A DNA stretch of 64,000 nucleotides, from IMG/VR virus record IMGVR_UViG_3300028048_002585, one strand, 5' to 3'. The position numbers and the translations under genes are program-made. The notes under the pieces are model-generated. The model did not search any database. It was not told the origin of the DNA and saw nothing but the letters and a program-made list of their open reading frames with translations. Origin of the DNA: an uncultured virus (IMG/VR IMGVR_UViG_3300028048_002585) (taxonomy: Duplodnaviria > Heunggongvirae > Uroviricota > Caudoviricetes). Of the stretch, positions 8,927-57,955 are shown in pieces (the stretch's first letter is position 1; each line of letters opens with the position of its first letter).

Positions 8927-8996
8927 TATTATGTATAAATACCGACCGGATATAAAAAAAGAGCCGATACAAAATGTACCGACTCGATTTTTTTTA
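8927..8996 (-). promoter_or_regulatory. Terminator plus class A promoter module
   Basis: Minus strand: GAGTCGGTAC-ATTTT-GTATCGGCTC-T7, then TTATACATAATA (8927-8938). Confidence 0.75.
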
Positions 8997-8997
8997 T

Positions 8998-9330
8998 TTA
9001 CTTTTCAATACCGCACTTAGGACATTTCTGTGGGAGCGGTGTTTTGTCTATTGTAAGCTGTAATTTTAATCCACAATTCTTACAATAATAATACTCGAAC
9101 CATCCGTCATGCCAGATATCCCATACAGGTTCTTTCTCAGGGCTTCTCTTTTCATTTTCGTCTGCTTCTCCGATAACGTCTACTTCCCATTTTTTATCGT
9201 TATCATCGTCTGATCTGAAACAATCCACATCCATATTCTCTGCTATTTCGAGGGCTTCTTCCTCATTTTCAGCCTCTACTACAGCATATGAATATACAGT
9301 CGAAATAGCTCTTACCTTATATTTTTTCAT
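8998..9330 (-). CDS. hypothetical protein with C-terminal zinc ribbon
   Basis: VEAENEEEALEIAE phage-type motif; CKNCG...CPKCG. Confidence 0.8.
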   Translation of the reverse strand: MKKYKVRAISTVYSYAVVEAENEEEALEIAENMDVDCFRSDDDNDKKWEVDVIGEADENEKRSPEKEPVWDIWHDGWFEYYYCKNCGLKLQLTIDKTPLPQKCPKCGIEK

Positions 9331-9343
9331 AGTTGTCTCCTTT

Positions 9344-9661
9344 CTAATTCCAGCTGTTTAGTTCTCGCTGAAATGTTTCATTGTAGTAATCCGAATCCTT
9401 ACCATGAGATGTAAGGATATAACCGTCTTGACGCATAGTCTTTCCGGTTTCGATGTCCATGTACTCTTCAGAGACTTCCTGAATAAGCTTATCTCTTAAA
9501 AGATCGTTCAGAGCTGTCTTTACACTCTTTTCATCTTCTTTTGTCTGCCTTACCAACCCGTTCACCGTTGATGAGAACGGAAAATAGCATTCTGTCGGGT
9601 AAGTATTTAGACAGGCTTCCCGATCACAGATGTGACGGAAAATTCTTTCCTTTAGTTTCAT
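9344..9661 (-). CDS. hypothetical protein, possible winged helix
   Basis: Start moved to ATG 9661 after AAGGAGG RBS. Confidence 0.7.
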   Translation of the reverse strand: MKLKERIFRHICDREACLNTYPTECYFPFSSTVNGLVRQTKEDEKSVKTALNDLLRDKLIQEVSEEYMDIETGKTMRQDGYILTSHGKDSDYYNETFQRELNSWN

Positions 9662-9682
9662 ATTGTTATCCTCCTTTCTACG

Positions 9683-9770
9683 TGTCAATAATTTCAAAAA
9701 TATTATGTATAAATTGGAGATCCATAAAAAAAGAACCATCCTTGTATATAAAGGATGGCTCAATTTTTTA
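9683..9770 (-). promoter_or_regulatory. Terminator plus class A promoter module with extended leader
   Basis: Hairpin+T7, TTATACATAATA (9701-9712), TGAAATTATTGACA. Confidence 0.75.
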
Positions 9771-9783
9771 GGTTGAACTTCTA

Positions 9784-9978
9784 TTACTGACCGCTATTCA
9801 TGTGATCGGCCCGATCAGCTGCATAGTGCAGGGAGAATATAGCTCCGATGATCGTATATAGCAGATATATTTCTGCAAATTTTAATTCGCTGCCTATAAA
9901 TGCTGTTATTGACAGCGTTGCCATTATTATAGTGATAATGATACTTACCACAAGGCGTTTTGGGACATTATTTTTCAT
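9784..9978 (-). CDS. small two-TM membrane protein
   Basis: Hydrophobic segments; start moved to 9978. Confidence 0.65.
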   Translation of the reverse strand: MKNNVPKRLVVSIIITIIMATLSITAFIGSELKFAEIYLLYTIIGAIFSLHYAADRADHMNSGQ

Positions 9979-10219
9979 TCTTTTTTCCCTTCTTTCTGTA
10001 GGCCTCTGGAAGAGGCGTCCACGCAATTATCGTTTCTGTTGTAGGATAATTGAGGTCTATCCAATCAGGCTCGTCTGTGCCTCTTCTGAAGCGTCTGTGA
10101 CTCCAATAACGAGTTACATGCATACGTCCCGAATCACTGCATACCAGTACGTATTCACTCGGCTCTACATAAACGTCTTCAGTTATGGGCTCATAAAGAA
10201 GCTTTTCTTCAACCGGGAA
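9968..10219 (-). pseudogene. DUF551-like coding segment in frame behind the TGA of the DUF4314 gene, with no start at its 5' end
   Basis: Open frame FPVEEKLL...YVLVC...IIAWTPLPEAYRK to TAA at 9968. Confidence 0.6.
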
Positions 10220-10423
10220 TCATCTGACTTCAGGAACTATTTCAAATTTATCCTCGTTTTCGATAAGTCCCAGTGTTGAGCCGTTATCCCAGTTCACATG
10301 AATGGTACCTGCATCATCTACGTAATTTACCGTTCCCATCGTACCTCTTGGTGGAGCCTGTATATCATCCATGTATAGCAGGCGTACCCTTGTACCTTTA
10401 GAATATCTCGAAGTGTTTTCCAT
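10220..10423 (-). CDS. DUF4314 family protein
   Basis: GTRVRLLYMDD...PPRGTMGTV..VDDAGTIHVNWDNGSTLGL. Confidence 0.9.
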   Translation of the reverse strand: MENTSRYSKGTRVRLLYMDDIQAPPRGTMGTVNYVDDAGTIHVNWDNGSTLGLIENEDKFEIVPEVR

Positions 10424-10436
10424 AATGATTTCCTCC

Positions 10437-10970
10437 TTAATATCCCATTACACGATGGTAATTCCTGCGATCCGTATTGTCACCTTCCCCAGAATATTTC
10501 CAGATGGTAGGATAACGTCCGAAATCGATGGATGGCTCCGGTTTCAGACCTATGGACAGGCCCCATTTCGTGCGGATCTCGGCTGCTTCTTTCAGGGTTC
10601 CGGCATAAGCTGTATGATCTGTATACCCTTCGGCGTTGTAACATACTACCATGTAGCGGTTCATATCGATGAAATCACTATATGTTCCGTAGAAATCTAC
10701 AAACTGTCCGTCATCATCATTGCAGCTGTACTGGTTTCTCTCATCAAGAATAATTTCTTCAGGACCGAAGATTGTGCCCCAATGATTCACCACAACGTAT
10801 GGCTGTACCTGCGCAAAGTTTCCTCCGCACTCGTCGTCGTCACGCACATCATATGCGTAACAGCCTTCAGGAAGAGATTCTCTGTCCATTCGCATATTGG
10901 AGAACAGAAACGTTTTTCCCTGTACCTCGACCGCCTCAAAACGGTCACTTTCATTGAATTTTACACTCAT
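10437..10970 (-). CDS. LPD28-like (large polyvalent domain) protein
   Basis: LFSNMRMDRESLPEGCYAYDVRDDDE...VVVNHWGTI; start moved to 10970. Confidence 0.7.
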   Translation of the reverse strand: MSVKFNESDRFEAVEVQGKTFLFSNMRMDRESLPEGCYAYDVRDDDECGGNFAQVQPYVVVNHWGTIFGPEEIILDERNQYSCNDDDGQFVDFYGTYSDFIDMNRYMVVCYNAEGYTDHTAYAGTLKEAAEIRTKWGLSIGLKPEPSIDFGRYPTIWKYSGEGDNTDRRNYHRVMGY

Positions 10971-10991
10971 GTTTTTTCTCCTTTCGTAAGG

Positions 10992-11080
10992 TGTCAATAA
11001 ATTCATAAATATTATGTATAAATACAAATCAGGCAAAAAAAGAGAACCCGTCCTAAAGGAATAGGTTCTCAAATTTTTTT
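10992..11080 (-). promoter_or_regulatory. Terminator plus class A promoter module with extended leader
   Basis: Hairpin+T-tract, TTATACATAATA (11010-11021), TGAATTTATTGACA. Confidence 0.75.
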
Positions 11081-11087
11081 GATGTGA

Positions 11088-12185
11088 TTATGAAACAACG
11101 TTGCTGCTACGAAGGTTGACATATACTGATGGAGTTGGTATCTTGTCATCGTTAAAACACTTGCGATGATGAACAGAATCTCTTACATATACTTGTTTAC
11201 CGGATTTATATGTTCTGATAAAACCTCTTGTTGGCCAAGAAGCGACCTTATACTTACGTACTGATTCCGCCGTTGGAAGCTTAGGCGCTTTAGAAGAAAT
11301 AATTCTTATTTTTCCTATATTTCGTATTAATTTTGCAGGTTGCGCGTTCTTAACAATAGTTGTTTGGGCTTTTGATGCTGCTTTTTTTGCAGCCCGATCC
11401 ACGACAGGTTTATTGTTAAACATAGTATAACTTGTAAATCGTGTAAGGTAATTAAAAACGAGCAGGATTTCATCAGCAAATTCTTCCCAATTAAGATTAG
11501 TTACTTCGAGAATATTTGGAAATAGTTTATTTTGATAATAATTTGCCGTTTCTAATAATATTTCTTTTTCTTTTTCAGATTTTTTGCAGTCTGGACAAAG
11601 GGAAACTGCTTTCATTAATATATTTAATGAAAAATCCGCTGTCTCCGAATTGTCTGGTACGGATACACTATGAAATTCTCTTCCGTCTGTTTTGTATCGT
11701 ATACTGCCAATCGGAATCCACAGCATTATTCCATCGCAAACATCTAACTCCCGTAAATATACTGTCACCCTGATATCCATTAGGTATCCTGATTCTGTGA
11801 GATTTAATTTGTTTATTATCCAATGATAATACTGTTCTGTCTCTTTAATATAATATACGCCTTCCTGAAAACAGGGGATTGATGTATATATGCTTTCATT
11901 GGCTTTATAGCATGCAAATTTTTCATCCCCAATAATGTTCTGATCCAGATTCATAAATCTTGACATATCATCAAGGTTATCCAGCTTTATTATATTTTTA
12001 TTCATCAATTCCCTTCTGGACATGATTATTTTACTATCGATAAGCTCATTGACAATGTCTTTAAATACGGTTGTGTGCTCAATATCAGTGTACTCGTTCG
12101 GTATTGTTACAACCGGGGCTTTTATCATTTTGCTTTTAGGGATAGTCATGATTGTTGAATCGTCAGTGTTGTTCCTTTTTCTCAT
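11088..12185 (-). CDS. phage-like hypothetical protein
   Basis: C-terminal WPTRGFIRTYKSGKQVYV motif; start moved to 12185 after AAGGAG. Confidence 0.8.
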   Translation of the reverse strand: MRKRNNTDDSTIMTIPKSKMIKAPVVTIPNEYTDIEHTTVFKDIVNELIDSKIIMSRRELMNKNIIKLDNLDDMSRFMNLDQNIIGDEKFACYKANESIYTSIPCFQEGVYYIKETEQYYHWIINKLNLTESGYLMDIRVTVYLRELDVCDGIMLWIPIGSIRYKTDGREFHSVSVPDNSETADFSLNILMKAVSLCPDCKKSEKEKEILLETANYYQNKLFPNILEVTNLNWEEFADEILLVFNYLTRFTSYTMFNNKPVVDRAAKKAASKAQTTIVKNAQPAKLIRNIGKIRIISSKAPKLPTAESVRKYKVASWPTRGFIRTYKSGKQVYVRDSVHHRKCFNDDKIPTPSVYVNLRSSNVVS

Positions 12186-12206: not shown

Positions 12207-12295
12207 TGTCAATAAATTCATAAATATTATGTATAAAAGGGAAAAGCGTAAAAAAAAGAACTGACGTTGATTGAAACGTCAGCTCGTTTTTTTTG
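12207..12295 (-). promoter_or_regulatory. Terminator plus class A promoter module with extended leader
   Basis: Core at 12225-12236. Confidence 0.75.
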
Positions 12296-12296
12296 A

Positions 12297-12869
12297 TTAT
12301 TCTTCGCTATCATTCAGAATTTTGCCTATTTTTCGGCATTCATCATATGCGGAACCTTTGCCGGCTTTTGTTGTGCCATAACTGATGAGATTTTGAAACA
12401 GCCATTCATCAGATGGAATCTTGTAGCAGAAATCTGAAGGACGTTCAGCTTTTGCTACTTCCTCATCCAGCTCGTCGGAATATCCTGTAAAGTATTCACG
12501 CCAGTCTTCATTTCCACTGTCGCAGCCGAATACATAGTCATTCACGATTTCTCTGATGAGCTTGACAGCGTTTTTCATTACTCGTTTTTCAGCTTCAACG
12601 GTCATTCCAAAGAAATTCGCTTTCTCCTCTGTCTCCGACAGCTTTACGATAGCCATGTCGAGCGCCTTGCTTCTTGGCTGTCCGTGGATCTCTAACTGTG
12701 TCTGCATCGCTTCGATATCGTCGATCGCATCTTCAGCAGTCATTACCTTTTCAACGAAATCTTCGCAATCATTTCTGTGAGGATGCTCCGGATCACAATT
12801 TCCGCAGCCTGCAGCGCCGCATTCCTCAAAATTAGCGCAGATATTACATTCACATTCACCACATATCAT
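12297..12869 (-). CDS. hypothetical protein with Cys-rich N-terminus
   Basis: AAGGAGG RBS; multiple Cys. Confidence 0.8.
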   Translation of the reverse strand: MICGECECNICANFEECGAAGCGNCDPEHPHRNDCEDFVEKVMTAEDAIDDIEAMQTQLEIHGQPRSKALDMAIVKLSETEEKANFFGMTVEAEKRVMKNAVKLIREIVNDYVFGCDSGNEDWREYFTGYSDELDEEVAKAERPSDFCYKIPSDEWLFQNLISYGTTKAGKGSAYDECRKIGKILNDSEE

Positions 12870-12891: not shown

Positions 12892-12975
12892 TGTCAATAT
12901 TTATATACATATTATGTATAAAGACGTGACGAACAAAAAAAGAGCCGGCGTATTGTACGTCAGCTCATTTTTTGA
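12892..12975 (-). promoter_or_regulatory. Terminator plus class A promoter module
   Basis: Core at 12910-12921. Confidence 0.75.
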
Positions 12976-13190: not shown

Positions 13191-13275
13191 TGTCAATAAT
13201 TTCATATATATTATATATAAAAATGTGATAATCAAAAAAAGAGCCGATACATAAAGTATCGACTCAGTTTTTTTT
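13191..13275 (-). promoter_or_regulatory. Terminator plus class A promoter module (variant TTATATATAATA)
   Basis: Core at 13209-13220; GAGCCGATAC hairpin arm identical to the one at 8961. Confidence 0.7.
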
Positions 13276-14503
13276 AAAATGTGATCATATCCGGATATTG
13301 TCTGAAGATACATCCGAATATCCGTTCAAGGACAGGAACGCATATGGAATTACCTGCGAGCGCTGCGATCTGTTTGTCCGTGAGTCCCGATTTGACCATT
13401 TTTTCATAGTCAACATCTCTGAAACCCATAAGTCTGAGTTTTTCAAGGGATGTAAACATGCGAAACTGGTCTCCGATCAGAACGCCCTGTCTTGGTGAAG
13501 TGGTGAGTGTTGATGCATAGTCTCCTACTCTTCCACGCCGGTTCTGAGAGTTTGGAAAGGCGAGGTCTACCCTCTGAAACTCGTTGATTGGAACATAGCC
13601 CGGACCCGCTCCAAAATCGCCTTTAACGGCCTGTCTTACATACCACTGAGTTCCTACCTTTTTCGTGATAGAAAGCTCTGTCGGTGTAAAACAGTTGTCC
13701 TTATCTGTCATTGAAGCTGTCAGATCAAGGAATTGTCTGAGGGTGTATCTTTCATTTTCAGGCACCGGTTCCGGCATTATGAACGCACCGTATCTGTCTG
13801 CGTATGGATTTAATACTGAAACGCAGAAAAACCGCTCTCTTGCCTGTGGTATTCCGTAATCGGAAGCATCGAGCATGTGTTCGATCATAACGCTTCTTGG
13901 CGAGACATATCCGCCCTTGGCCACATACTTCTTGCTGCCACAGAAGGTATTTGTGTAACCATATCCTTCCATGGTTGTAAGATAGTTGCAGAGCACGTCA
14001 GGGTGGGAATATGCCATGTTCGGTACATTTTCCCATATGACAACTTTAGGCTGTCTGGTGAGCTCTCTGAAGCCTGTAGCGGGAGCGGGATCGAGAATCT
14101 GCAGAGTTCTTTCATACAGAATCGAACGACCGGTATTTATGTCGTTTTTGCCCTCTCTTGAATAATCCTGGCATGGACTGCCATGTACCAGGATGTCCAC
14201 ATTCAAATTCCAGCAGCGGATGTCCTGTGGTCTGTTCGATAGGTCAAACATCTGATTGTATGCCTGCACTGCATACGGCAGAACTTCCACATAGTCTATC
14301 GACTTGATAAATTTGGATGCTTCCTGATACAGCTGTTTCTTGGTAAAGGTCGGGTTATCCGTCCTCACCTTGGCCTTGATTACATTTTCTAAGGCCCTTC
14401 TCGGGGCACCGATGCCGCCGAATAGCTCCAACAGATGTATTGGATGGATCTGCTCACTGACATCCGGCACGCCCTTTTCCTTGATTTTGGTGAAATCTTT
14501 CAT
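13274..14503 (-). CDS. orphan C5 DNA cytosine methyltransferase
   Basis: Motifs LELFGGIGA (I), HGSPCQD (IV), WENV (VI), PQARERFF (VIII), AGNSI (X); no adjacent endonuclease. Confidence 0.93.
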   Translation of the reverse strand: MKDFTKIKEKGVPDVSEQIHPIHLLELFGGIGAPRRALENVIKAKVRTDNPTFTKKQLYQEASKFIKSIDYVEVLPYAVQAYNQMFDLSNRPQDIRCWNLNVDILVHGSPCQDYSREGKNDINTGRSILYERTLQILDPAPATGFRELTRQPKVVIWENVPNMAYSHPDVLCNYLTTMEGYGYTNTFCGSKKYVAKGGYVSPRSVMIEHMLDASDYGIPQARERFFCVSVLNPYADRYGAFIMPEPVPENERYTLRQFLDLTASMTDKDNCFTPTELSITKKVGTQWYVRQAVKGDFGAGPGYVPINEFQRVDLAFPNSQNRRGRVGDYASTLTTSPRQGVLIGDQFRMFTSLEKLRLMGFRDVDYEKMVKSGLTDKQIAALAGNSICVPVLERIFGCIFRQYPDMITF

Positions 14504-14528: not shown

Positions 14529-14620
14529 TGTCAATAAATTCATTAATATTATGTATAAAGAGATTAATAACAAAAAAAAAGAGCCGATAACATTTAATAT
14601 GTTACCGACTCGATTTTTTT
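14529..14620 (-). promoter_or_regulatory. Terminator plus class A promoter module with extended leader
   Basis: Core at 14547-14558. Confidence 0.75.
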
Positions 14621-17236: not shown

Positions 17237-17590
17237 TTATACGTTGGTAATCACTCGTCCAGTACACTTTAATTCATGACATAAAGTGTTGGACCCGGGA
17301 CTGTATTTATGCACAAGATATCTTCCGTATTCCGCATCAGACATCTCAGGCTGTCTCAGTCCGTCACTGCTGTCGGGATCATTCCCTAATTCAGCAATGT
17401 CATTGAAGAGAAATATCTTTTCTCTGCGTGAATACGCATCAGATATCTTTTCTTCCAAGCTTACATCGTTGATAAGCTCGTTGATCTCCTCAATTTTAAG
17501 CCCGTCTTCTGCAAGCAGAAGGATCAGACTTATCGTGCTGGTTGATAGACCAGCTGTGGCACTTTTTTGTGCCGTTTGTTTGTGGTTCAT
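17237..17590 (-). CDS. hypothetical protein
   Basis: AAGGAG RBS after a class A promoter. Confidence 0.75.
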   Translation of the reverse strand: MNHKQTAQKSATAGLSTSTISLILLLAEDGLKIEEINELINDVSLEEKISDAYSRREKIFLFNDIAELGNDPDSSDGLRQPEMSDAEYGRYLVHKYSPGSNTLCHELKCTGRVITNV

Positions 17591-17613: not shown

Positions 17614-17690
17614 TGACAATAAATTCATATATATTATGTATAAAGTTGGAGAATACGAAAAAAAGAGCCGGTTCTTCCGGCTCTTTCGAT
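17614..17690 (-). promoter_or_regulatory. Terminator plus class A promoter module
   Basis: GAGCCGG-AAGAA-CCGGCTC-T7; core at 17632-17643. Confidence 0.75.
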
Positions 17691-18924: not shown

Positions 18925-19055
18925 ATTTTCCCCTTCCTTTCTGTGTTCGGTTTATAATATTATGTTTTTGGTTTTTTCTGTGTTATATTTTCAGATTTTT
19001 TTACAATTTTCCGACTCCTTTTGTTTTTTTTAATTTTTACATAGTTTTTCATATA

Positions 19056-19108
19056 TATTATGTATAAATTCATAGTAAACAAAAAAAGAGCTCCATCAGG
19101 AGCTCTAT
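19056..19108 (-). promoter_or_regulatory. Terminator plus class A promoter (no extended leader)
   Basis: GAGCTCC..GGAGCTC-T7; core at 19056-19067. Confidence 0.7.
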
Positions 19109-19122: not shown

Positions 19123-19524
19123 TTATTCATTTGGAGAAGGTAACTCTGTTTTAAATATCCTGCTCGGTGTTTGTTTAAATATTATTATATACAAAACAGC
19201 GCACAAATACGCCGCATTATGCGTATTGAACAGGAATGCAAGAGTTTCGTTATCGTGTTTAATGCATGTTATAAAATTTTTTTCCTGCCTTTTAAGGGAA
19301 AGTAGGAACAGCTGAATTTGGAGATTATTGATATCATTTTTTGCAAAAAGTACGTAGATGTTTATTTTTTCGTTTTCTTTTTTTGCATATACGTCAATAT
19401 CATTTATAATAGTATTTATAGGAACGTCATATTCCCTGGCAGATTCGACAATATCCCTGCTTGCCGCTTCAATAAACTGTTTATATGATGATGAGTCTTT
19501 TGTAATCTTATCCTTGTCCAACAT
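19123..19524 (-). CDS. hypothetical protein
   Basis: Operon spacing; TTG start. Confidence 0.6.
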   Translation of the reverse strand: MLDKDKITKDSSSYKQFIEAASRDIVESAREYDVPINTIINDIDVYAKKENEKINIYVLFAKNDINNLQIQLFLLSLKRQEKNFITCIKHDNETLAFLFNTHNAAYLCAVLYIIIFKQTPSRIFKTELPSPNE

Positions 19525-22254: not shown

Positions 22255-22260
22255 ATCGTA

Positions 22261-28430: not shown

Positions 28431-28459
28431 ATTGTAATTTATATTGACGTATATAACAA
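28431..28459 (-). promoter_or_regulatory. sigmaA-type promoter with class B operator upstream of the BlaI-like gene
   Basis: TTGTTA-TATACGTCAATATAAAT-TACAAT. Confidence 0.75.
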
Positions 28460-29740: not shown

Positions 29741-29855
29741 GGCGGTCCTTCCTTTCTAAAGTTTATTTCCTATATATATTATGTATAAATCTGAGATAAA
29801 AATAAAAAAAGAGAGCCGATGTTTGACGACTCTCAATTTTTTTTATTTAGTTTTT

Positions 29856-30701: not shown

Positions 30702-30843
30702 ATGCGTCCTCCTTTCCGTGTTCAACGGAGAAGAATACGGACTGACGCTTCTTGAGAAGCTTCTGCTGCTTTGCCTTATCAGGCTCAAGCAATGTACCTT
30801 CCTCATCTCTGATCCGATACAACCTTTGAATGATATTTTCCAT
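30679..30843 (-). CDS. small hypothetical protein
   Basis: ATG 30843 after AAGGAGG; first gene of the ssb operon. Confidence 0.6.
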   Translation of the reverse strand: MENIIQRLYRIRDEEGTLLEPDKAKQQKLLKKRQSVFFSVEHGKEDAYGKEAVN

Positions 30844-30864: not shown

Positions 30865-30986
30865 TGTCAATAATTTCACTCATATTATGTATAAAATTTA
30901 TCTTCACAAAAAAAGAGGATCCTGATAATGGCAACATTTATTACTTTCATTACATTTATTATAATACATATTGACGTATATATCAA
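30865..30986 (-). promoter_or_regulatory. Tandem class B promoter (TTGATA-17-TATAAT, 30958-30986) and class A promoter (core 30883-30894) for the ssb operon
   Basis: Both motifs read directly. Confidence 0.75.
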
Positions 30987-31031: not shown

Positions 31032-31063
31032 TTTTTTGAGCAATGTCTATTTTATACATAATA
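31032..31063 (+). promoter_or_regulatory. Class A promoter of the relaxase (only plus-strand copy)
   Basis: T6-14 nt-TTATACATAATA, orientation follows the gene. Confidence 0.75.
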
Positions 31064-31082
31064 TATTAAAGAGGTGATTTCA

Positions 31083-35128: not shown

Positions 35129-35251
35129 TCTCCGTTTCTATATTTTATTCTTCTATATATATTATGTATAAGTTTTGAAGTAAAATACCAAATCATCATA
35201 AAAGAACGCATTTTTACGAAATCGCATATTCCCTCCATACTACTACCTTTT

Positions 35252-39018: not shown

Positions 39019-39136
39019 TGTCAATAATTTCATATATATTATGTATAAATTTATTAACACCGAAAAAATGTGATATAGCCTTGTATTATTGGCTTTTTCT
39101 TATTTTTATTATACGATATATTGACGTATATATCAA
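39019..39136 (-). promoter_or_regulatory. Tandem class B promoter (39108-39136) and class A promoter (core 39037-39048) for the recombination operon
   Basis: TTGATA-TATACGTCAATATATCG-TATAAT; TTATACATAATA. Confidence 0.75.
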
Positions 39137-42560: not shown

Positions 42561-42699
42561 CTGGTATACCCTCTCATATAAAAAATACTTCTATATATAT
42601 TATGTATAAGAAAAGAACAAAAACGGCAAAAAAGTATTTTTTTATGATAAATGGCAACAAAAAACGCCCGGCAGATGCCGGACGCTGTTCGTTTTTTCG

Positions 42700-43485: not shown

Positions 43486-43679
43486 ATTTTTCTCTGCATT
43501 AAATGCTTTTCCTTCCGTAAATCTGATATATCTTCCCCACTTTGATTTTAGTTTATTTTATATTAACGTATATGTCAATAGAATTTTTCGTCTTTGGTTC
43601 GATTCTTTAGTCGGTTTTTACTCAAAAAAAGACCCCATACTTCCGAAAAGTATGAGGTCAATTTTTTATGGATCAGTGA

Positions 43680-47161: not shown

Positions 47162-47212
47162 TGTCAATAATTTCATTAATATTATGTATAAATAAATCAG
47201 GTGTTAAAAAAA
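47162..47212 (-). promoter_or_regulatory. Class A promoter with extended leader for dnaG-nrdD
   Basis: T7, core at 47180-47191, TGAAATTATTGACA. Confidence 0.75.
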
Positions 47213-49300: not shown

Positions 49301-50567
49301 GGCTGTTATCCTCCCTGTCTTCCTTAATATGATTTTCCTGTGATCTGTTTGCCTGGCTTTTTTCTTTTGCCTCTTTTAATGCCTGTTTCGGGTCTATCAG
49401 TTTGTCTTTATCTGATTCTTTCTTTGAAGGAATGCTGTGATCGGCATACTGTCTCTCTTCAATGACCGAACTCAGCTCGGCTCTGTATTCTTTTTCGTAT
49501 AATGTGCCACTGTAAATACGTTGTTCTAGTTTCATCAGGTTTTCGACCATCTGGTCCGATACCTTTGGGTTCTTTACCATTGCCACGATATCCTCATATG
49601 ACGGATATTTGTCTATATATCTGTATATGGTATTGATTGTTTTTGCATAGATATTCGGATGAGAGGATGTTTCTCTCAAGATATTGAATGCGATTTTTTT
49701 AGGGCCTTCATATCTTTCTACGGTATCGATGACTTTTGTTGCATTATCAACGAGTCTATCCAGTCTTTTTCCCGATGTCCGGGGATCCTGTGCTTCTTTC
49801 AGATATAGCATCAACTGTGCTTCCTGAGATATTGTGTGACTTTTATCTTTAAGAAGTGACTCAAGTATTTCATTTGAAATATTCGGGTTTAAAAGAACTG
49901 CCTCTCTTACAGATTTACTGCTGTCTTTCGACAGTCTTTTTAAATCGTCTTCTGGACATCTCTCATTTTTTGCCACAAATCTTCTGACATCCGAACTTTT
50001 GTTCTGTGATGCCTTTCTGAACATTTCTGTATTTGAGATTGGATTGGTCAAGACACGCCTGATCAGTTCATCCTTTCTAGCGCTGTTATATTCACTGAGA
50101 TGTTCCCATTGCTCATTATTAAGGCATCTTTCAAATATTGCTTCGAGTATTGCCGGATTTTCTGTCGTTTCAGACAGATTCATTAATTTTTCCGGCAGCA
50201 TGCGTTCGGTTTTTATTATCTCCAACAGAACATCTTTCGGTGTATTCTTATTTCTTATAAGTCCTTCTATAACATCTGTATATGCATTATGAGTGTATTC
50301 GGGGTCCTCATATATTTTTTCCAGTACCTCCGAAGGAGTATAAGGACTGTTAAGGATATGCTTTGCGTAATTCCCGAATTCGTCCTGCCTGAGATACTCT
50401 TCATACAGTTTGCTCGGTGTTTCAAGGCAGCTTAAAAAAGCTTTCTGTAGATCATATTTTCCAAATTTTGTATCTTTTTCAATTGATTTTAAGATGCTTC
50501 TCAATTCTTCTTCTGAAAGAACGTCGAAAACACTGCGAACTGAACCTTTTTCCATATTTGAACACAT
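49293..50567 (-). CDS. LRV/HEAT-like repeat protein with shared C-terminal tail motif
   Basis: Repeats NxxTPxEVLxxI and DVRRFVAKNERCPEDDLKRLSKD. Confidence 0.8.
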   Translation of the reverse strand: MCSNMEKGSVRSVFDVLSEEELRSILKSIEKDTKFGKYDLQKAFLSCLETPSKLYEEYLRQDEFGNYAKHILNSPYTPSEVLEKIYEDPEYTHNAYTDVIEGLIRNKNTPKDVLLEIIKTERMLPEKLMNLSETTENPAILEAIFERCLNNEQWEHLSEYNSARKDELIRRVLTNPISNTEMFRKASQNKSSDVRRFVAKNERCPEDDLKRLSKDSSKSVREAVLLNPNISNEILESLLKDKSHTISQEAQLMLYLKEAQDPRTSGKRLDRLVDNATKVIDTVERYEGPKKIAFNILRETSSHPNIYAKTINTIYRYIDKYPSYEDIVAMVKNPKVSDQMVENLMKLEQRIYSGTLYEKEYRAELSSVIEERQYADHSIPSKKESDKDKLIDPKQALKEAKEKSQANRSQENHIKEDREDNSRE

Positions 50568-50601
50568 CCTTTCGTGATAGATTTTGAATTATATTCAAAT
50601 A

Positions 50602-50670
50602 TATTATGTATAAATTTGGATTGCATAAAAAAAGAGCCTGTACAAATCAATGTACAGACTCGATTTTTTA
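50602..50670 (-). promoter_or_regulatory. dnaE terminator plus class A promoter module
   Basis: GAGTCTGTACA..TGTACAGGCTC-T7; core at 50602-50613. Confidence 0.75.
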
Positions 50671-53600
50671 AATCACATTCGGGAGTGATTTCACTTCCTC
50701 TGATACCGTATATGTCGCCTTTCGGATCTCTCCGAGTGCTTCATCATAGATATTGAGGGTATTTCCATTCTCGTTTCCGTATCTGCTTATAAAATCATCC
50801 TCTTTAAACAGGTGGAAGTGAGCGTATGAAGGAACCTTTAATGTGTATTCCTTCTTTTTCTTTTCAGCAAGCTCTATGGTTTCTGGGAAGTATTTTCTCT
50901 CGATGACAGGATTACCTTCTTCATCAAGATACTCTGTTTTTTCTTCTCTTAATTCACCTGATAATATGATTACATTTCCTTCTTCAAGGATAGAACCATA
51001 TTTCTCATAGTTTTTAGTGAACACGTTTACTGTGAGAAGCTCCGTGCCGTCGTTAAGGGTAATGAAAGCCATTTCCTTCCCGTCGGACTTTCTCTGCTTC
51101 TTTTCCAGTGTTTCTATAACTCCATAGATCCTACATCTGTCAATTGCCTCATCTATCGGTGTTACACCGAGCTGTTCATGATCCGGATAATCCTCAAGTG
51201 GGCTCTTTGATACGAATGTTCCGAGAAGCTTTTTTTCTTCCTTCAGTCTGTCGTTGGAATCTTCAGGAATAGAAACCGGCATTACTATTTCTCCAAGGCA
51301 TCTTTTTGCATTGTCGTACTTTGTGATGGCCTGATCGTAAGCCTTGGTTCCTTCTTCGGCTTCATCAATCATCGCTTTCGTATCTCTTACCTTTTTAACC
51401 GCTGCCTTCATTTCCTCTGATACTGCGAGCATTGCCTGTCTGTTATCACAGAAGCAGTCGAATGCACCTGCCTTTATCAGGTTTTCGGTAGCTGTCTTAT
51501 TGATATTGGTTCTCATGAAGAAATCTCGGAATGACTTAAATTTGCCATTCTTTCTCTCTATAAGTATTTCTGCCGCCGATGAACCGACGGACTTGACTGA
51601 TTTCATTCCGAAAATTATATCACCGCCTGCTACAGTGAATCCTGTTCCGGCAGTATTTATATCCGGTACGTCGGTCTTTATGCCAAAATGCTTTGCCTCA
51701 TACATAAGACCGCTGATTTTTTCGAGTGGTGCCCAGTTGAGAGCGGCTGCTATAAATTCTGCAGGATAATAGCATTTCAGCCAGCCTGTAATATAAGCAT
51801 TATATGCGTATGTTGCTGCATGTGACTTGTTGAATGCATATTTTGCGAACTCGGACATCTGGTCAAACAGTTTGTTGGCCGCTTCCTCAGATATGCCGTT
51901 GGCAACACAGCCATTGATATTCCTGCTGGCATCACCGTGGATGAAAGACTCTCTCTCATGAGCAAGCTTGTCGATTTTCTTCTTTGACATATAGCGGCGT
52001 ACATTGTCTGCTGCGCCAAGGCTATAGCCGGCAAGATCCTGGAATATCTGCATAACCTGCTATAGTGATAGGTAAACCTTTGATATTATCTCTGGTTTTT
52101 CCCCCACTCCACACGGTACGTGCGAGTTTCCCCGCATACCGCGTTCCATCATTATCATTTATCGTTAAATATCTAAATAATTATCCGTTTCTCTTTAGGC
52201 ATAGGGTATCACCTTCTTATCTTCCACTATTTAGTGTTTGAAGGAGCTTTTTTTGTCATACTCGAATCCCTATGTTAAATTATATGATATAACGTTACTT
52301 TGATAATGACTTGTGTCCATTCCTCTATCTTCATTACAAAGATTTCATCGGTTCGAACACTACTTTTCAGCATTGATTCAATTGCTTATTATAGGAGTTA
52401 TCCATTTTCGTCAATTTATATTCATTACTGAATACTCAATACCTTTCCGTGTTCCAATAACTCTATCCTTTATCATATACCCTTAGGTTCCTATTATAAG
52501 CCTGCTAGCTTGAATATACCTTTAATATATTATGGATTTTCATAACCAAGATTTTTACTCATCCACACTAGCATCCATTTCGAATGGCATTCATGCATTT
52601 CTGCATGTTCGTATCTAGACCCTTTAAATCACAGGTTCGTCCGTCATTAAGACATACTAACCATAGGTATTTTATGGACTACCGGCATATCATTTTCCAT
52701 ATTTTGTACTAATAATTTTCATACAGGTGGACTCTAGTCTCTTTTGTACCAATATTACTTGTTATATTCCTCTACTTAGGAAAACTTCTGCCGACTTCAC
52801 CGAGCTTCATACAACTAAATTTTCATTATATGTTGCATGTCGGAGTATTATAGAGTATGTTTCAGGACGTTACTCCATCATTCCATACTTCGAGTTATTA
52901 GTTCAAGATTTATTTCTCTAAGCTTTTGATACAGGCGAACTCTAGTTCATTTTTTTACCAATATTTACTAACTTATTTACTCTAATTCTTGCTCAAGCTT
53001 TTCACTTGAGAACGCGTCGCACCCTGGTATACAATCGCACCGTATGTCTTGCCGATGATAGGCGCGAGCTCAGGTGTTATGTATTCCGGTTCTTTTCCAT
53101 CATTTTTAACGGCGATGACTCCGTCAATGAATTGGAGCGGACCCGGGCGGAACATGGATACCAGTATGATCAAGTCTTCAAAACATTCCGGTCTGAATCT
53201 CTTGAGCATGTTTTTCATACCACTCGACTCAAACTGAAATATTGAGTTAGTTTTTCCACTCTGAAAAATGTCCTTATAAACCTTCGGGTCATTAATTTCA
53301 AGATTCAGAGGGTCGATATCTATACCTTTTTTACTCAGCATCTTGAGTGTGTCGGTTATGATATCAAGTGTCTTGAGACCAAGGAAATCCATCTTGAGAA
53401 GGCCCTTAGCCTCAGTTTCTACCATGTCGCACTGGGTTGTCCACTCTGAGAGCTTGTCATTCCAGCGCAGAGGTATGTATTCACTTACATCATCATTATC
53501 ACTGATAACGATTCCCGCGGCATGAGCGCCGTAGTTGGTAAAACTGCCTTCTATAAGTTCTGCCCATCTGATTATCTCAAGAGCATCTTTATTTCCGGCA

Positions 53601-55597
53601 TAATCTCTCTTCAGCATCTCCGATATGGCGATCTCTTCTTCACCTCTCATAATCTTACTGCCAAAGTGTATTTTCGGCTCAGCTGGGACTTTCTTTGCCA
53701 TCTCATCTGAAAGATGGAGAAAAGCTCCTTCCTTACCGATCTTCTGTCCGTAATACTTTGCAGTAATACGGATTGCTCCACGAGGAGCCTGCGCGTTCTG
53801 TGTCATGATACCGCATACGGCATTTTTTCCGTATTTGTTTGTTACGTATTCGATAACCTTTGGTCGCACATTTTTAGCGATATCTGAATCGATATCCGGC
53901 ATACTTACTCTCTCTACGTTAAGGAACCTTTCAAAAAGAAGATCGTACTTAAGCGGATCAAGCGAAGTGATACCGAGAAGGAAGCAGACAAGTGAACCTA
54001 CAGCAGATCCTCTTCCCGGACCTATTGTAAATCCTGGTTCCGCTCCAATATTCTTAATATATTCCTTTAACTCTTCTATAGTAAGTGGAGCTTCTTTGAC
54101 CTTGTCTGTCGGAATGTATCCGAGAAGTCTTCCGTATTCGAGGAAATCGCGGACTATCAGATGATAATCAACGTATCCCATTCCTTTGATTACTTTAACT
54201 TCTCTTTCGAGTCTTTTCTGATATTCTTCATCCAGACCATCCGGAAAGCATCTTTCAACGCCTTCAGCTATCAGTCTGTCAAATATCTGTTCCGAAGTCT
54301 CGCCTGTATTTGATTTATAAACAGGGTAGTGATCTTCTTTTGGAAACTCGACATTACAGGAATCAATGATGTATTTTATATTCTTGATCCCCTTTTCTAC
54401 TACTGCTCTTGGCAATATCTCTGAGATGATGTCTTCCAGTTCTTCGTCTGATTTGATATAGAGCTCGGAATCTCCTACTGACGGTTCCTGCCACTTTCCA
54501 AATCGAAGAGCTTTCAGGATATTTCTCCTCAAGATTTCTTCCTCTGTGCCTTCAACGATATGAACATCGTTTGACGCAACTACCGGAAGTCCTGCCTCGA
54601 CAGCGATGCGTGCTACCTTTGGGTAAATTTCCGCTTCTAGCGGTATCCTATGATTCTGGATCTCGATGAAAAAATTGTTGTCACCAAAAAGCTCATTGAA
54701 CTCTTTTGCTGTACTTACAGCTGAGCCGTAGAGTTCCTCTTCCGGTAACATTTTTGCTGACACTTCGCTAATTTTCTCAGATATCTCTTCATACTTTGAA
54801 GCACTCTCGCGTAATTCCTTGAGCTCTTTTTCATAAGTGCTCTTTCTTTTTGTGAGAGCCGTCACCTCTTTCTTTATCTGAATGAGGCGTTCAGCAGCTT
54901 CTGCCGCTTTTTTCTTGTCATCCTCAAGAGCCTTTCTGGTCTGTTCCTTTTCGGAACCTTCAGGCATCTTGGCAAGAGATTTTTCTCTGAAAGTGAACTT
55001 TGTCTCAGCAGTTTTCTTTGTCATCTCTCTTTCATCTTTTTTTATTTCGAGCTTTTCGAGCACTTCTTTCAGATCAGCTTCTTCATTAAGGAGACGCTTG
55101 TCTGTAGGTGCTATGTACTTTGCTCTTCTTCTTTCGAGCTTTTCGATCTCATCTCTTAATTCGTCGTTAGCTCGTAACTTCATTGCGATAACACCCTGTA
55201 TGCAGGCGCTGGTAGCAATGATGTTGTTGTGACCGGATGTTCCCGGCCCAAAATACTTTTTAAGGATCTCAAGGTTCATTACGGCCTTTCCGTCCTTATT
55301 GTTCGACTTTGTCACAGCCTGCATCAGTGCCTTATATCCTTTATAATTCTTGGATATGAGGATCAGATGACATGTACTGATACCATCGTCGTAATATGCT
55401 TCGCAGCCGGGGATGAATTTTAGTCCTGCTTCCTCTGCCGCATGTCTCATCAGCTCAACAGCTGACAGTACGCCGTGCTGGGTAAGCACGAATCCTTTTG
55501 CCCCCAATTCTGCGAGCTTCTTCACTACTTTTTCGGGATCATTCTGTGAATCGTACTGATCCAGGCAGTGAAGATGTATCTCTCCATATTTTGACAT
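50668..55597 (-). CDS. dnaE: DNA polymerase III alpha subunit; exons 55597-53023 and 52061-50668 (1322 aa spliced)
   Basis: PHP HLH, GPGRGSAVGS, MPDIDSD, HAAG, KMDFLGL, FNKSHA, OB fold; splicing restores YGAIVYQEQVMQ. Confidence 0.95.
52062..53022 (-). mobile_element. ORF-less group II intron (961 nt) in dnaE
   Basis: 5' GTGCG, 3' ...CACTAT; domain V ACGCGGTATGCGGG-GAAA-CTCGCA-CG-TACCGTGT (52144-52111); removal rejoins G|AG (Glu) in frame. Confidence 0.93.
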
Positions 55598-55629
55598 CTT
55601 AATCACTCCTTTCATTTTTCTCCTTGGAT

Positions 55630-55680
55630 TGTCAATAATTTCATGTATATTATGTATAAAAACGTGGTGGCTGAAAAAAC
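55630..55680 (-). promoter_or_regulatory. Class A promoter with extended leader for dnaE
   Basis: Core at 55648-55659. Confidence 0.75.
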
Positions 55681-55736
55681 ATACCCTTTGTATTCTTTCA
55701 ATGAATGCGTGATTTGAACTAATTGTATTTTTATTA

Positions 55737-55765
55737 TTGACATATACGTTAATTCATTATAAAAT
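55737..55765 (+). promoter_or_regulatory. Near-consensus sigmaA promoter with class B operator driving an ncRNA
   Basis: TTGACA-TATACGTTAATTCATTA-TAAAAT. Confidence 0.8.
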
Positions 55766-55776
55766 AATTTTAATTT

Positions 55777-55865
55777 AAGCGAGCTAACCGGGACTGGGAG
55801 CTTTACGCGAGTCAGTCGGCGGAGAGTATGTCACACGGTTTCGATACACGGTGATTCGTTTACCA
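55777..55865 (+). ncRNA. Putative tRNA-like small RNA ending in CCA
   Basis: GC-rich island between promoter and terminator; AAGCGAG/TTCGTTT-A-CCA stem; TTCGA loop. Confidence 0.6.
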
Positions 55866-55906
55866 AAAAAAGAGCTGGACAAGTTTGATGCCAGCTCTCT
55901 TTTTTT
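55865..55906. terminator. Bidirectional terminator
   Basis: A7-GAGCTGG...CCAGCTC-TC-T7. Confidence 0.75.
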
Positions 55907-56531
55907 AATCAAAAAGCCTTATTATTCTTTTAGGCTTTCCTCCGAGCTTTTCATAAATTTCCCGTACTTCACGGTATTTATTTAAAATCTCGGTTCTGAG
56001 AGGTTCTTTATAATCATTGAATATCCCCTCATAAAATCTCATTCTCTCGTCAGCCCTTTCCATAAGCATATATCGGATCGTTTCGGGATCTATCTTATAT
56101 ATGTCCTGAAGCTTCGGAAGTTCTTTTGCCCCTGGATTATATATTCCGATGGCAATAAGTTCTTCTGCTGTCAGAGGCAGGAGAATTTCTTCCTTTTTAC
56201 TCGGGACATTTCCCTTTAGAAGGTATTCCTCCGCTCCGCCGAGAGCATCCCCTATCTTTTCGCAGATCTGCGGAAAAGACAGGTCTTCACCCTGTAGCAG
56301 GAAGTAGTTCTTTACATAGGAAAATGCATCGAAGTTTTCCCCACAGGTGTAGCAATGCGTTGATTTTTCGTACACCGCATTGTGGTTGCAGTGAGTTTCG
56401 GAATGTTGTCCCGAAACACATTTGCAATAGAGCGTACTGCCGGAGCGGTACAACTCATCCTCTGAGCATATATACCTGACGATCTGTGCCATGTTAATGT
56501 CAGATTTTAGCCGTTCGAGATCGTACTGCAT
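55905..56531 (-). CDS. Stand-alone CHC2-like primase zinc-finger protein
   Basis: CKC...H...HCYTCGENFDAFSYV; start moved to 56531 after AAGGAGG; class A core at 56579-56590. Confidence 0.7.
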   Translation of the reverse strand: MQYDLERLKSDINMAQIVRYICSEDELYRSGSTLYCKCVSGQHSETHCNHNAVYEKSTHCYTCGENFDAFSYVKNYFLLQGEDLSFPQICEKIGDALGGAEEYLLKGNVPSKKEEILLPLTAEELIAIGIYNPGAKELPKLQDIYKIDPETIRYMLMERADERMRFYEGIFNDYKEPLRTEILNKYREVREIYEKLGGKPKRIIRLFD

Positions 56532-56701
56532 GTCAGTACCTCCTTTCTTTCTCCTTGGATCGTCAATAATTTCATGTATATTATGTATAAAAAACAACTG
56601 TACGAAAATATAAAAGCCGCATGGAAGCGGCTTTGTATATGTTTTATATCACAACATTCGGCGGGAAGAATGGACAAACTTCTTTTTATAGTGCTTTATA
56701 T

Positions 56702-57955
56702 TTAGTTATAGTTCGTGTATTCACTGTCAGGTTCGTATCCGTCATAATCGTCAAACCATTTCGACTCAGGGTATATTTCTTCAAAAATCTGATCATGGTC
56801 TTCAAATACTTCCATTTCGCCGTTTTCCATAATCTGGTTAAATTCATTCATAGCTTCATCAGTTATATCGAAGCCTCTTGAGGAGTATCCTACAGGCTTG
56901 ATTTTTATTTTTTTTACCTCGTGCATGATAATCTTATATTCAGAGTATACACGGTTAAAATACTTAATAAAGTTAGCTTTATCGGGAGGTTGCTTATACC
57001 CTTCAAAAGTATAGAGCTCAACAAAAACTTTATGGAGCTTTGAGAAATCTATTTGTTGAGAAGGAAATCCGTAGTCCCAATAACGCATAAGTGCATCAAT
57101 ACAGAGAACACCGAACTTGTCATACTCGTTCATGATTCTGTTCGCCTTTGCGATATCTTCATCCTCTTCTTCTTTCAATACTTCCTTCTCAGGATTTCCG
57201 ACATTTGATGATATAACACCTTCGTATCCTTCCAAGGACAGAGAGGTTATAGAGTCCTGTTCCTTTACTCTTATGAGCAGTGTTTCTGTAAGGTTCTTTA
57301 AATTGAACTTTTCAGCGTTTTCGAGGTACCACATGTGTGTAGGAACTATCCCATTCTTTTCAGCGTAGTCGTCCATAGCAGCCAGTTTGCCTCTGACCTC
57401 GTGATCTCTCTTAGAAAAGTCGTCAAAGTTTCCGTTGATATCTTCTATAACAACATTTTTTATGTAATACGATGCAAAAGTGCTTATCTTTGCACCATAG
57501 GTTAGTTTATAATGCCCGGACTTGATCATTTTGATGATCATATAAACGGCCATATTTGTAGCACTGTCTACAAGATCGGGATTGGGCTTGCCGTTTACGA
57601 CGCATGCCTCTTTTCCATTGTTTCCCTTCTTGATCAATATTTTGCTGACTTCCCGGTTTATCCACGATCGATATACTGCATCTACTATCTCGGTACCCAT
57701 GATAAATTCTGCTTGAGTTCCTTTTGTCATCTTTGTGACGAGTACAAATTCATCTCTTCTGGTTAATGTCCATTTATCCTTCTTATGGTACAGAAATGTG
57801 TCTTCATAAAGCTGCTTATAATCGGCATTTAATTCCTCTTCTGTCAACTGGAAGTCGTAAGGATTGGATAACTCGCTGTCTTTAAACTCTTTTACGACAT
57901 TTTCATCAAGATATAAATCTTTTTTCGAAATCATCAGCTCGTTCCTCCTATCCAT
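56702..57955 (-). CDS. Divergent sigma-70 family factor (candidate)
   Basis: YKLTYGAKISTFASYYIKNVV resembles region 2.3-2.4 (FDPxKGxKFSTYAxWWIR); followed by region-3-like GIVPT...SLSLE and NPEKEVLKEE. Confidence 0.55.
   Translation of the reverse strand: MDRRNELMISKKDLYLDENVVKEFKDSELSNPYDFQLTEEELNADYKQLYEDTFLYHKKDKWTLTRRDEFVLVTKMTKGTQAEFIMGTEIVDAVYRSWINREVSKILIKKGNNGKEACVVNGKPNPDLVDSATNMAVYMIIKMIKSGHYKLTYGAKISTFASYYIKNVVIEDINGNFDDFSKRDHEVRGKLAAMDDYAEKNGIVPTHMWYLENAEKFNLKNLTETLLIRVKEQDSITSLSLEGYEGVISSNVGNPEKEVLKEEEDEDIAKANRIMNEYDKFGVLCIDALMRYWDYGFPSQQIDFSKLHKVFVELYTFEGYKQPPDKANFIKYFNRVYSEYKIIMHEVKKIKIKPVGYSSRGFDITDEAMNEFNQIMENGEMEVFEDHDQIFEEIYPESKWFDDYDGYEPDSEYTNYN

Follow-up and report, generated by a model that had tools for sequence, protein, structure and literature searches.

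The DNA analysed here raises the question of what reads a promoter-like motif that recurs along it. It is a stretch of 64,000 nucleotides (nt) from the IMG/VR record IMGVR_UViG_3300028048_002585, filed under an uncultured virus of the Caudoviricetes, and this whole stretch is called the window. The best explanation of the window is that it is part of a conjugative-type mobile element, larger than 64 kb, of a rumen Bacillota-like host. Two of its features are treated together: a family of repeated intergenic sites, designated class B, and a divergent protein of sigma-70 fold, designated the sigma-like protein, whose gene lies at 56702-57934 on the - strand. We infer that the class B sites are promoters, where their transcripts begin and that the sigma-like protein is their reader. 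The reading in which this protein of the element, acting on the host core RNA polymerase, recognizes the class B sites is favoured at slightly better than even confidence.

The class B motif TTATACATAATA, searched with up to one mismatch, was found 20 times in the window, as 19 exact copies and the variant TTATATATAATA at 13209. The expectation from shuffled sequence is 1.05 matches (standard deviation 0.97, largest 4), and none of 100 shuffles reached 20. The initial annotation had reported 19 copies; all of its 19 coordinates and strands are right, with 31052 on the + strand and the rest on the - strand, while its total is one short, as the exact copy at 1800-1811(-) was not listed. The heptamer CATAATA is invariant in 19 of the 20 sites. 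Alignment of the sites extends the invariant core to the 14-mer TTTATACATAATAT, which is non-palindromic and is present in 16 exact copies in the window against 0 in 100 shuffles; the four remaining sites differ from it at one position each. Each class B unit is in turn part of a longer repeat of 50-80 nt that includes a terminator tail and a ribosome-binding site (RBS).

The motif appears to be private to the element. The 14-mer is present in 96 of 401 Clostridia genomes (0.8-5.5 Mb) with a maximum of 4 copies per genome, and a reversed-pattern control gave similar counts in the same genomes; these genomes may not include the host of the element, and the background says only that the motif is no general feature of such genomes. 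In viral contigs the 14-mer occurs in at least 115 stretches, and among the 80 matches listed there are only single copies, each on a different contig. A scan with an extended 29-nt motif gave no match in viral contigs, one chance match inside a gene of a Clostridia metagenome-assembled genome (MAG; 3 copies of the 12-mer in 1.1 Mb), and one metagenome contig that is 100% identical to positions 6956-12083 of the window. Within the window, no class B copy accompanies the type IV secretion system (T4SS) genes at 59.5-64 kb.

The sites have a regular relation to genes. At 18 of the 20, an RBS-like word, a start codon and an open reading frame (ORF) of at least 40 amino acids (aa) follow on the same strand 19-52 nt past the motif, and at site 19056 the distance to the gene is 131 nt. 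Site 1800 has no gene within 400 nt; ahead of it are a terminator and a convergent gene's 3' end, and any transcript from this copy would at most be very short or antisense. In all, 19 of the 20 copies point the same way as a gene downstream of them, as had been described from the sequence. Position, strand, RBS spacing and over-representation together are the behaviour of a promoter set.

Upstream of the core, positions -19 to -14 counted from the first base of the motif are T in 16-19 of the 20 sites in a gap-free alignment. The spacer of 12-13 nt between this T-run and the core is not conserved, with no position from -13 to -1 above 0.5 bits. A strong hairpin (-12 kcal/mol or below, range -12 to -19) abuts the T-run at 12 of the 20 sites, and a weaker one (-7.3 kcal/mol) is found at site 31052. 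The other seven sites have no hairpin, and at four of these (30883, 39037, 47180 and 55648) a run of six or seven T is still in register; sites 1800, 35160 and 42598 have neither hairpin nor T-run in register. The earlier claim that the T-tract is kept where no terminator hairpin exists, made for 39063, 47206 and 55674, therefore stands, since the run is in register at the corresponding sites 39037, 47180 and 55648. A feature absent from the earlier description is a half-conserved box, GAAATTATTGACA, 5 nt downstream of the motif at 11 of the 20 sites. The TTGACA within this box was considered as the -35 of a further promoter and ruled out by eye, as no -10-like hexamer lies 17 nt on. No Rfam leader RNA was matched at the class B sites, a group II intron being the only Rfam match.

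Position 18 is a purine in 19 of the 20 sites (G in 13, A in 6) and is probably the transcription start, as judged from the sequence. With position 18 as the start, the CATAAT hexamer would lie at -12 to -7, within a 14-mer spanning about -18 to -5, and the T-run would occupy about -37 to -32. In sigma-70 holoenzymes, these spans correspond to the DNA contacted by sigma domains 3 and 2 and region 1.2. A class B promoter would then consist of the T-run, which in 12 units would double as the U-tract of the preceding intrinsic terminator; the variable spacer of 12-13 nt; the 14-mer, read as an extended -10, the CATAAT hexamer and two discriminator bases; and a purine start about 6 nt past the 14-mer. 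The box GAAATTATTGACA, where present, would cover +1 to +13, and the RBS would follow 20-40 nt further.

The same geometry bears on the idea that class B is a non-promoter site, acting in recombination, replication, partition or the processing or stability of messenger RNA, or a dispersed repeat spread along with terminators. Such an origin would suit the embedding of each unit in the 50-80 nt repeat with its terminator tail and RBS, as well as the copy at 1800 with no gene behind it. It does not explain the strict gene orientation (19 of 20) and the fixed RBS distance, and the -10-like core with a purine at the expected start fits a promoter. Moreover, the sequence between T-run and core varies while the spacing is fixed, which points to selection on geometry more than to the copying of a mobile repeat. 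A non-promoter role is accordingly considered most improbable.

If the sites are promoters, they are not of the canonical sigmaA type. The -10 CATAAT agrees with TATAAT at 5 of 6 positions, whereas the TTTTTT in the place of the -35 agrees with TTGACA at 2 of 6; the spacer is 18-19 nt and there is no TG of an extended -10. Among the class B sites only 55648 and 47180 pass even a loose rule of 9 out of 12 sigmaA positions, and the description of the motif as non-sigmaA agrees with this. The promoters of sigmaG and sigmaF have a CATA-type -10 and a G-ATA-type -35 located 17-18 nt upstream. The proposed match of CATAATA to the sigmaG -10 holds for that box, but a G-ATA-type -35 is not conserved and the T-run is the sole upstream feature.

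Clean sigmaA-type boxes do occur elsewhere on the element. Repeat analysis revealed nine copies of a second motif, class A, with the form TTG[A/T][T/C]A-17-TA[T/A]AAT and the conserved spacer TATACGT[C/T]AATAT, which had not been described before. The spacer holds the inverted words TTGA...TCAA, and from their sequence the class A sites look like ordinary sigmaA-type promoters with an embedded operator. Three of them head the block of + strand genes at 0.2-6 kb, two stand in tandem 70-90 nt upstream of the class B sites 30883 and 39037, and two run antisense to ORFs. This analysis of the window yielded no third family of repeated intergenic motifs. Because clean sigmaA boxes are used elsewhere and there are only two motif families, class B alone is left as a candidate set of targets for a factor other than sigmaA. 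Near one class A site, contigs of a sheep-gut DNA run (X5) join window position 4638/4639 to the upstream edge of the class B units 13209 and 9701 on the opposite strand; this join at about 4636-4640(+) reflects either a repeat assembly artefact or a strain that has a + strand class B copy after class A 4607-4635.

The main alternative is that a host sigma factor reads class B, either sigmaA with a poor -35 or a sporulation-type factor (G, F or K), while the flanks of the 14-mer and the box GAAATTATTGACA bind an activator or repressor of the element that coordinates the regulon, in the manner of the Kor operators of IncP plasmids, and the sigma-like protein has other targets or another role. 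The one-base difference of CATAAT from TATAAT and the fit of CATAATA to the sigmaG -10 agree with it. So does the word ATTATTGA(C/T)A of the class B downstream box, which the nine class A promoters also have at their -35 region and which hints at a common DNA-binding regulator, and a BlaI-like repressor gene is located behind a class A promoter. The sigma-like protein, besides, is tied to the motif by argument only. On the other side, a host factor would have to work with a T-run in the place of the -35 and with neither a TG extended -10 nor a conserved G-ATA box, on an element that has clean TTGNNA-17-TANAAT boxes elsewhere. The 14-mer is non-palindromic, unlike usual dimeric operators, and is at background in the 401 Clostridia genomes, with the reservation on the host given above. 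Reading by a host sigma factor is considered unlikely, at a level that still deserves attention.

The sigma-like protein is very distantly related to known sigma factors. The likely start codon is the ATG at 57934: an AGGAGG lies 8 nt upstream of it, and it shares bases with the stop codon of a 66-aa ORF; near-identical database relatives are also 410 aa long. The family is small: among 1.84 billion representative proteins there were three matches, at 98% identity, at 35%, and a partial one at 37%, and the third cluster is represented in the family alignments by an added full-length member. A core of the form ISTFA..N is invariant within the family. In a Foldseek search of the PDB with the AlphaFold model of the whole protein, all 50 listed rows were sigma factors or RNA polymerase complexes containing one, with weak E-values from 2.9e-3 to 6.2e-2. 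Residues 56-177 were superposed by VIA-align on sigma domain 2 of SigW (Z 9.4, root-mean-square deviation 1.9 A, 87 residues aligned), on sigmaE (Z 9.3, 2.2 A, 90 aligned) and on E. coli sigma70 (Z 9.3, 2.9 A, 104 aligned), all within the range of Z 6-10 that the notes of the tool give as common for helical proteins. The structure search of the ESM Atlas returned ten nearest clusters, and all ten are sigma-70-family members by name or Pfam (template modelling score by query 0.23-0.45).

Sequence profiles pointed to the same domain. When the family alignment was compared by hhalign with seven sigma factors of a Clostridia MAG, residues 122-169 were aligned with regions 2.2-2.4 (P 1.4e-4 to 1.8e-4, probability 49-53%), and five of the seven sigma factors taken singly gave the same register. 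The 35%-identical relative, P0004, had three sub-threshold NCBIfam matches, all to sigma models (SigK twice and FliA/WhiG, E 0.09-0.26). By hhalign no other sigma-like ORF was found in the window, the best being a BlaI-like helix-turn-helix protein at P 0.013. The segment resembling sigma regions 2.3/2.4 that had been noticed in this ORF is thus supported by the domain 2 fold and, more tentatively, by the profile alignment.

The C-terminal domain, residues 238-352, is modelled as four helices with confidence (mean predicted local distance difference test, pLDDT, 81.5). Compared with 48,161 chains, its best match was the -35-binding domain (region 4) of SigL, at Z 6.7 with 80 of 80 residues aligned. 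Sigma factors are named in 21 of the 50 rows of that search; a further 5 are chain F of initiation complexes, and winged helices of ORC/Cdc6 account for 10. That this domain is sigma domain 4 is plausible but unproven. For the protein as a whole, the models describe a sigma-70-type protein with an N-terminal extension and an acidic tail, in which the assignment of domain 2, by fold and profile alignment, is well supported.

The gene closes an operon. The sequence TTGACT-16-TATAAT at 59399-59372, which matches the sigmaA consensus at 11 of 12 positions, is the top-scoring promoter-like site in 46-64 kb and is preceded by a T-rich terminator tail; it is a consensus match only, as the scan for sigmaA sites was not enriched overall (42 found, 50.4 expected in shuffles). 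It heads a unit of three genes that ends in the sigma-like gene, in agreement with the earlier placement of this ORF in an operon with a sigmaA promoter. The sigma-like gene is translationally coupled to the 66-aa ORF and co-transcribed with the gene of a HipA_C-domain kinase-like protein. From their position, these two products are candidates for putative control of the sigma-like protein, as an anti-sigma factor or by phosphorylation.

Another polymerase or factor of the element, encoded outside the window, could also read class B, for example a single-subunit RNA polymerase of the phage type. Promoters of such polymerases are about 20-30 nt long, nearly invariant, and reach into the transcribed region. 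The conserved block of class B runs from position 0 to about 30, across the presumed start, as in T7-type promoters; the bracketing of units by terminators is in the style of phage genomes, and family members of the sigma-like protein are located on contigs of 88.7 and 153.7 kb, so that the element exceeds the window. None of the 69 ORFs of the window matches an RNA polymerase family, however. Nine of the 20 sites lack the downstream box, while the T-run at -35 and the -10-like core are kept, which fits a two-element sigma promoter better, and the window holds a sigma-fold gene that would otherwise be without targets. Such a polymerase is therefore regarded as quite improbable. The 802-aa ORF at 14812-17223(-) was considered as a YonO-like polymerase and ruled out: it encodes a repeat protein without polymerase motifs or matches, having an N-terminal domain of phrog_3205 and a QPCEDAVSR-like peptide dispersed in about six copies.

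Several results weigh against the favoured reading, in addition to the common range of the Z-scores. No sigma model of Pfam, PHROG or NCBIfam matches the sigma-like protein at any listed threshold: its sole Pfam match at E<=10 is DUF677 (0.026), PHROGs gave nothing, and NCBIfam at E<=1 gave no sigma model. The whole-protein AlphaFold model is of low confidence (pLDDT 55), Foldseek with it gave no match at E<=0.001, and Foldseek with the C-terminal domain gave no match in the PDB (best E 1.6). In hhalign with the single sequence, the protein reached P 0.032 and rank 4 of the 69 window ORFs, not set apart from the others; compared with 1.4e-4 for the family, this indicates that the sequence signal depends on the family alignment. 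No class B copy precedes the sigma operon, from 56591 to 64000. As CATAAT is one base off the sigmaA -10, host sigmaA with an activator may serve these sites, and since the element extends past the window, as the 153.7-kb contig indicates, other transcription factors or polymerases may be encoded beyond it. The RNA evidence, in turn, consists of short low-depth contigs with possible DNA carry-over in the libraries. Three rumen metatranscriptome runs gave contigs of 183-603 nt, of low depth and 100% identical, inside many genes at 1-20 kb, and among the 24 pieces listed there is none that crosses a class B site. Contigs of the DNA run X5 also break or mis-join at class B repeats, so the gaps between the RNA contigs are an assembly effect and indicate neither starts nor transcription.

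According to the favoured reading, the host sigmaA-type promoter would drive expression of the HipA-like kinase, the 66-aa ORF and the sigma-like protein, which with the host core RNA polymerase would then act at the class B sites. Nineteen transcription units would start with such a private promoter, each insulated by terminators. The sigma-like protein would switch on replication genes (DnaE, primase, NrdD, single-stranded DNA-binding proteins (SSBs) and helicase) and recombination genes (the Erf-like protein and the exonuclease), as well as the relaxase, the coupling protein, the methyltransferase and accessory genes. A cascade from host sigmaA to a private sigma factor and on to replication, transfer and accessory genes had been suggested before; its transfer part is reduced to the coupling-protein operon and the relaxase. 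With nine class A promoters on the element, the cascade would be richer than one from host sigmaA through a private sigma to everything else. A more specific proposal is that of an orthogonal system, in which an unrecognised sigma family reads an extended -10 and a T-run, with the terminator U-tract serving as the -35, and in which insulated terminator-promoter cassettes are switched on jointly after a sigmaA step; it is put forward tentatively, as short of an even chance. The coordinates are collected in Table 1.

Table 1. Class B units, class A sites, the sigma operon and other features located in the window.
Feature	Position	Strand	Context
Divergent sigma-70-fold protein	56702..57934	-	410 aa from ATG at 57934; earlier start at 57955 gives 417 aa
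SigmaA-type promoter TTGACT-16-TATAAT, 11/12	59372..59399	-	heads HipA-like / small ORF / sigma-like unit
HipA_C-domain kinase-like gene	58147..59253	-	first gene of sigma operon
66-aa ORF, no family found	57934..58134	-	stop overlaps start codon of sigma-like gene
Terminator-like hairpin	56613..56634	-	closes sigma operon; next class B site at 56579
Orphan class B core	1782..1831	-	no T-run, no gene behind; faces bidirectional terminator; back to back with class A 1821-1849(+)
Class B unit	8909..8958	-	ahead of DUF4116 gene 7918-8874; T-run, TTTATACATAATAT, initial transcribed region; hairpin -14.9
Class B unit	9683..9732	-	ahead of 9344-9661, 8998-9330
Class B unit	10992..11041	-	ahead of LPD28-domain gene 10437-10970
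Class B unit	12207..12256	-	ahead of 11088-12185
Class B unit	12892..12941	-	ahead of 12297-12869
Class B unit, variant core TTATATATAATA	13191..13240	-	ahead of 62-aa ORF starting 13169
Class B unit	14529..14578	-	ahead of C-5 cytosine methyltransferase 13274-14503
Class B unit	17614..17663	-	ahead of 17237-17590, 14812-17223
Class B unit	19038..19087	-	131 nt before HEAT-repeat gene 17701-18924
Class B unit	29759..29808	-	ahead of 28967-29740, 28467-28970
Class B unit, T-run without hairpin	30865..30914	-	ahead of 54-aa ORF, 30357-30806, SSB 29856-30314; class A about 70 nt upstream
Class B unit, sole + copy	31032..31081	+	ahead of MobV (Mob_Pre) relaxase 31083-32153
Class B unit, C at position 0, no T-run in register	35142..35191	-	ahead of 34739-35122, PIN-PhoH 33348-34724, coupling protein 32266-33336
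Class B unit, T-run without hairpin	39019..39068	-	ahead of Erf-like 38305-39000, exonuclease 37437-38285, RecD2 helicase 35252-37372; class A upstream
Class B unit, C at position 0, T-run out of register	42580..42629	-	ahead of FHA-domain gene 40338-42560
Class B unit, T-run without hairpin	47162..47211	-	ahead of primase 46045-47136, NrdD 43680-46070
Class B unit	50584..50633	-	ahead of 49293-50555, 48044-49300
Class B unit, T-run without hairpin	55630..55679	-	ahead of intron-split DNA polymerase III alpha 52982-55615 / 50668-52053
Class B unit	56561..56610	-	ahead of DnaG-type zinc-ribbon protein 55905-56531; just past sigma-operon terminator
Class A	231..259	+	ahead of ORF 311-625 (+)
Class A	1821..1849	+	ahead of + ORFs from 1910
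Class A	4607..4635	+	ahead of ORF 4679-5050 (+)
Class A-like TTTGCA-17-TATAAT	19382..19410	+	within, antisense to ORF 19123-19524
Class A TTGTTA-17-TACAAT	28431..28459	-	ahead of BlaI/Penicillinase_R-like repressor gene 28087-28410
Class A TTGATA-17-TATAAT	30958..30986	-	tandem upstream of class B unit 30865-30914
Class A TTGATA-17-TATAAT	39108..39136	-	tandem upstream of class B unit 39019-39068
Class A TTGACA-17-TAAACT	43550..43578	-	ahead of 42700-43485
Class A TTGACA-17-TAAAAT	55737..55765	+	divergent from class B 55630-55679; antisense to 55905-56531
Tyrosine recombinase	6133-7164		Pfam
MobV-type (Mob_Pre) relaxase	31074-32153	+	Pfam
Type IV coupling protein	32266-33336		Pfam
M23/lysozyme cell-wall hydrolase	60106-62514		Pfam
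VirB4-like ATPase	62538-63971		Pfam

The gene content of the window was examined by a Pfam scan of its 69 ORFs and by a PHROGs scan. Besides the integration and transfer proteins of Table 1, Pfam revealed a large replication and recombination set (a two-piece DNA polymerase III alpha, a DnaG-type primase, NrdD and a RecD2-type helicase) together with a PIN-PhoH protein, two SSB-like proteins, an RNase T-type exonuclease and a C-5 cytosine methyltransferase; the Erf-like annealing protein was identified by PHROGs. Phage structural genes were not matched among the window ORFs by either scan. The DNA of the window is present in bovine and sheep gut metagenomes, and a near-identical copy of the sigma-like protein on the 153.7-kb contig indicates that the element is larger than the window.

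From 6.1 kb onward, almost all genes are on the - strand. The block at 1-6075 consists of small + strand ORFs without Pfam or PHROG match, with a strong GC skew of 0.25-0.34 and class A promoters in front, and the very start of the window looks by eye, from no scan, like the C-terminal end of an HNH-type endonuclease ORF. A low-GC island at about 22000-28000 (0.32-0.33 against about 0.39-0.41 elsewhere) has small ORFs without family matches and seven intergenic gaps of at least 100 nt, with neither class A nor class B motifs; it is possibly cargo acquired later. An ORF-less group II intron at 52062-52906(-) interrupts the gene of DNA polymerase III alpha and is matched in Rfam by RF02004 at 52671-52906 (127.8 bits) and RF00029 at 52062-52146 (60.8 bits).

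Relatives at the DNA level were not found in the collections searched. The family alignment search gave no DNA locus of the sigma family in the genome, viral and metagenome contig collections, the family profile A2 matched none of 399 scored Clostridia genomes (two further genomes were unscored), and tblastn with P0001 and P0004 gave no match in plasmids or phages. Megablast of positions 50000-58000 against phage and plasmid collections also gave no match.

Among known systems, the closest in kind is SigN (ZpdN) of the Bacillus subtilis plasmid pBS32, which is transcribed from sigmaA promoters and drives a plasmid-borne regulon of several operons including DNA replication (PMC6751061). The sigma-like protein shares with it the location on a large element, a sigmaA-type promoter, a regulon on its own element and weak similarity to sigma factors, although the case is inferred here and experimental for SigN (PMC6751061). 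SigN promoters in rows of Table 2 of that report have a TTTACG-like -35 and a GATAAA- or GATATA-like -10, in contrast to the T-run and invariant 14-mer of class B, and SigN activates its own gene from PsigN3, whereas no class B copy precedes the sigma operon (PMC6751061). Of the SigN features, a sigmaA-type promoter and a shared private motif ahead of many operons were found in the window, and an autoregulatory promoter was not; the system would thus lack positive feedback of the kind of SigN or Sig7-8. The sigma-like protein had no tblastn match in the plasmid collection, whose inclusion of pBS32 was unchecked.

Sig7-8 of Tn916 is described as a split sigma factor of two subunits with one main promoter, Psig7, and a feedback loop (bioRxiv 10.64898/2026.10.01.756105). 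It is similar in being a sigma factor of a Bacillota conjugative element with activator-type control of element genes (bioRxiv 10.64898/2026.10.01.756105). The consensus of the sigma factors of conjugative transposons remains unknown according to a C. difficile promoter atlas (PMC7438776). Unlike Sig7-8, the system described here would have a single 410-aa protein and about 19 dispersed promoters, with no sign of autoregulation.

Phages also carry sigma factors for middle and late genes, such as gp28 and gp33/34 of SPO1 and gp55 of T4, whose late promoter is the -10-only TATAAATA. The likeness is that a mobile genome would direct the host core to a strict motif of its own by means of a very divergent sigma, and the T4 gp55 promoter is approximately an extended -10 without a canonical -35. 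Unlike the elements of these sigmas, the window has a T4SS and a relaxase and no phage structural genes, and we know of no fixed-register T-run or terminator-promoter fusion in the SPO1 and T4 systems. In IncP plasmids, KorA and KorB bind palindromic repressor operators at sigma70 promoters and coordinate the operons of replication, maintenance and transfer. Class B resembles the Kor sites as one short repeat at many promoters and differs from them in a non-palindromic core that replaces the sigmaA boxes; by this analogy, class A would be a better counterpart of Kor-type control than class B.

A mobile element with its own sigma factor can have its whole gene set switched apart from host regulation, which shapes the timing of replication and transfer. 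To our knowledge, few such systems have been worked out, namely SigN, Sig7-8 and the phage sigmas. The kind of system is thus already known; new here are the sigma family, the 14-nt invariant core combined with a T-run in the -35 position, and a terminator tail fused to the promoter. If the favoured reading is true, it adds a sigma family that is missed by current family libraries, along with a full candidate regulon of 19 units whose geometry is defined and whose invariant core has 14 nt. Designers of orthogonal expression parts for Bacillota would find both the strict motif and the terminator-promoter fusion of interest. The case also suggests that other 'hypothetical' proteins on conjugative elements of the rumen and gut may be hidden sigma factors.

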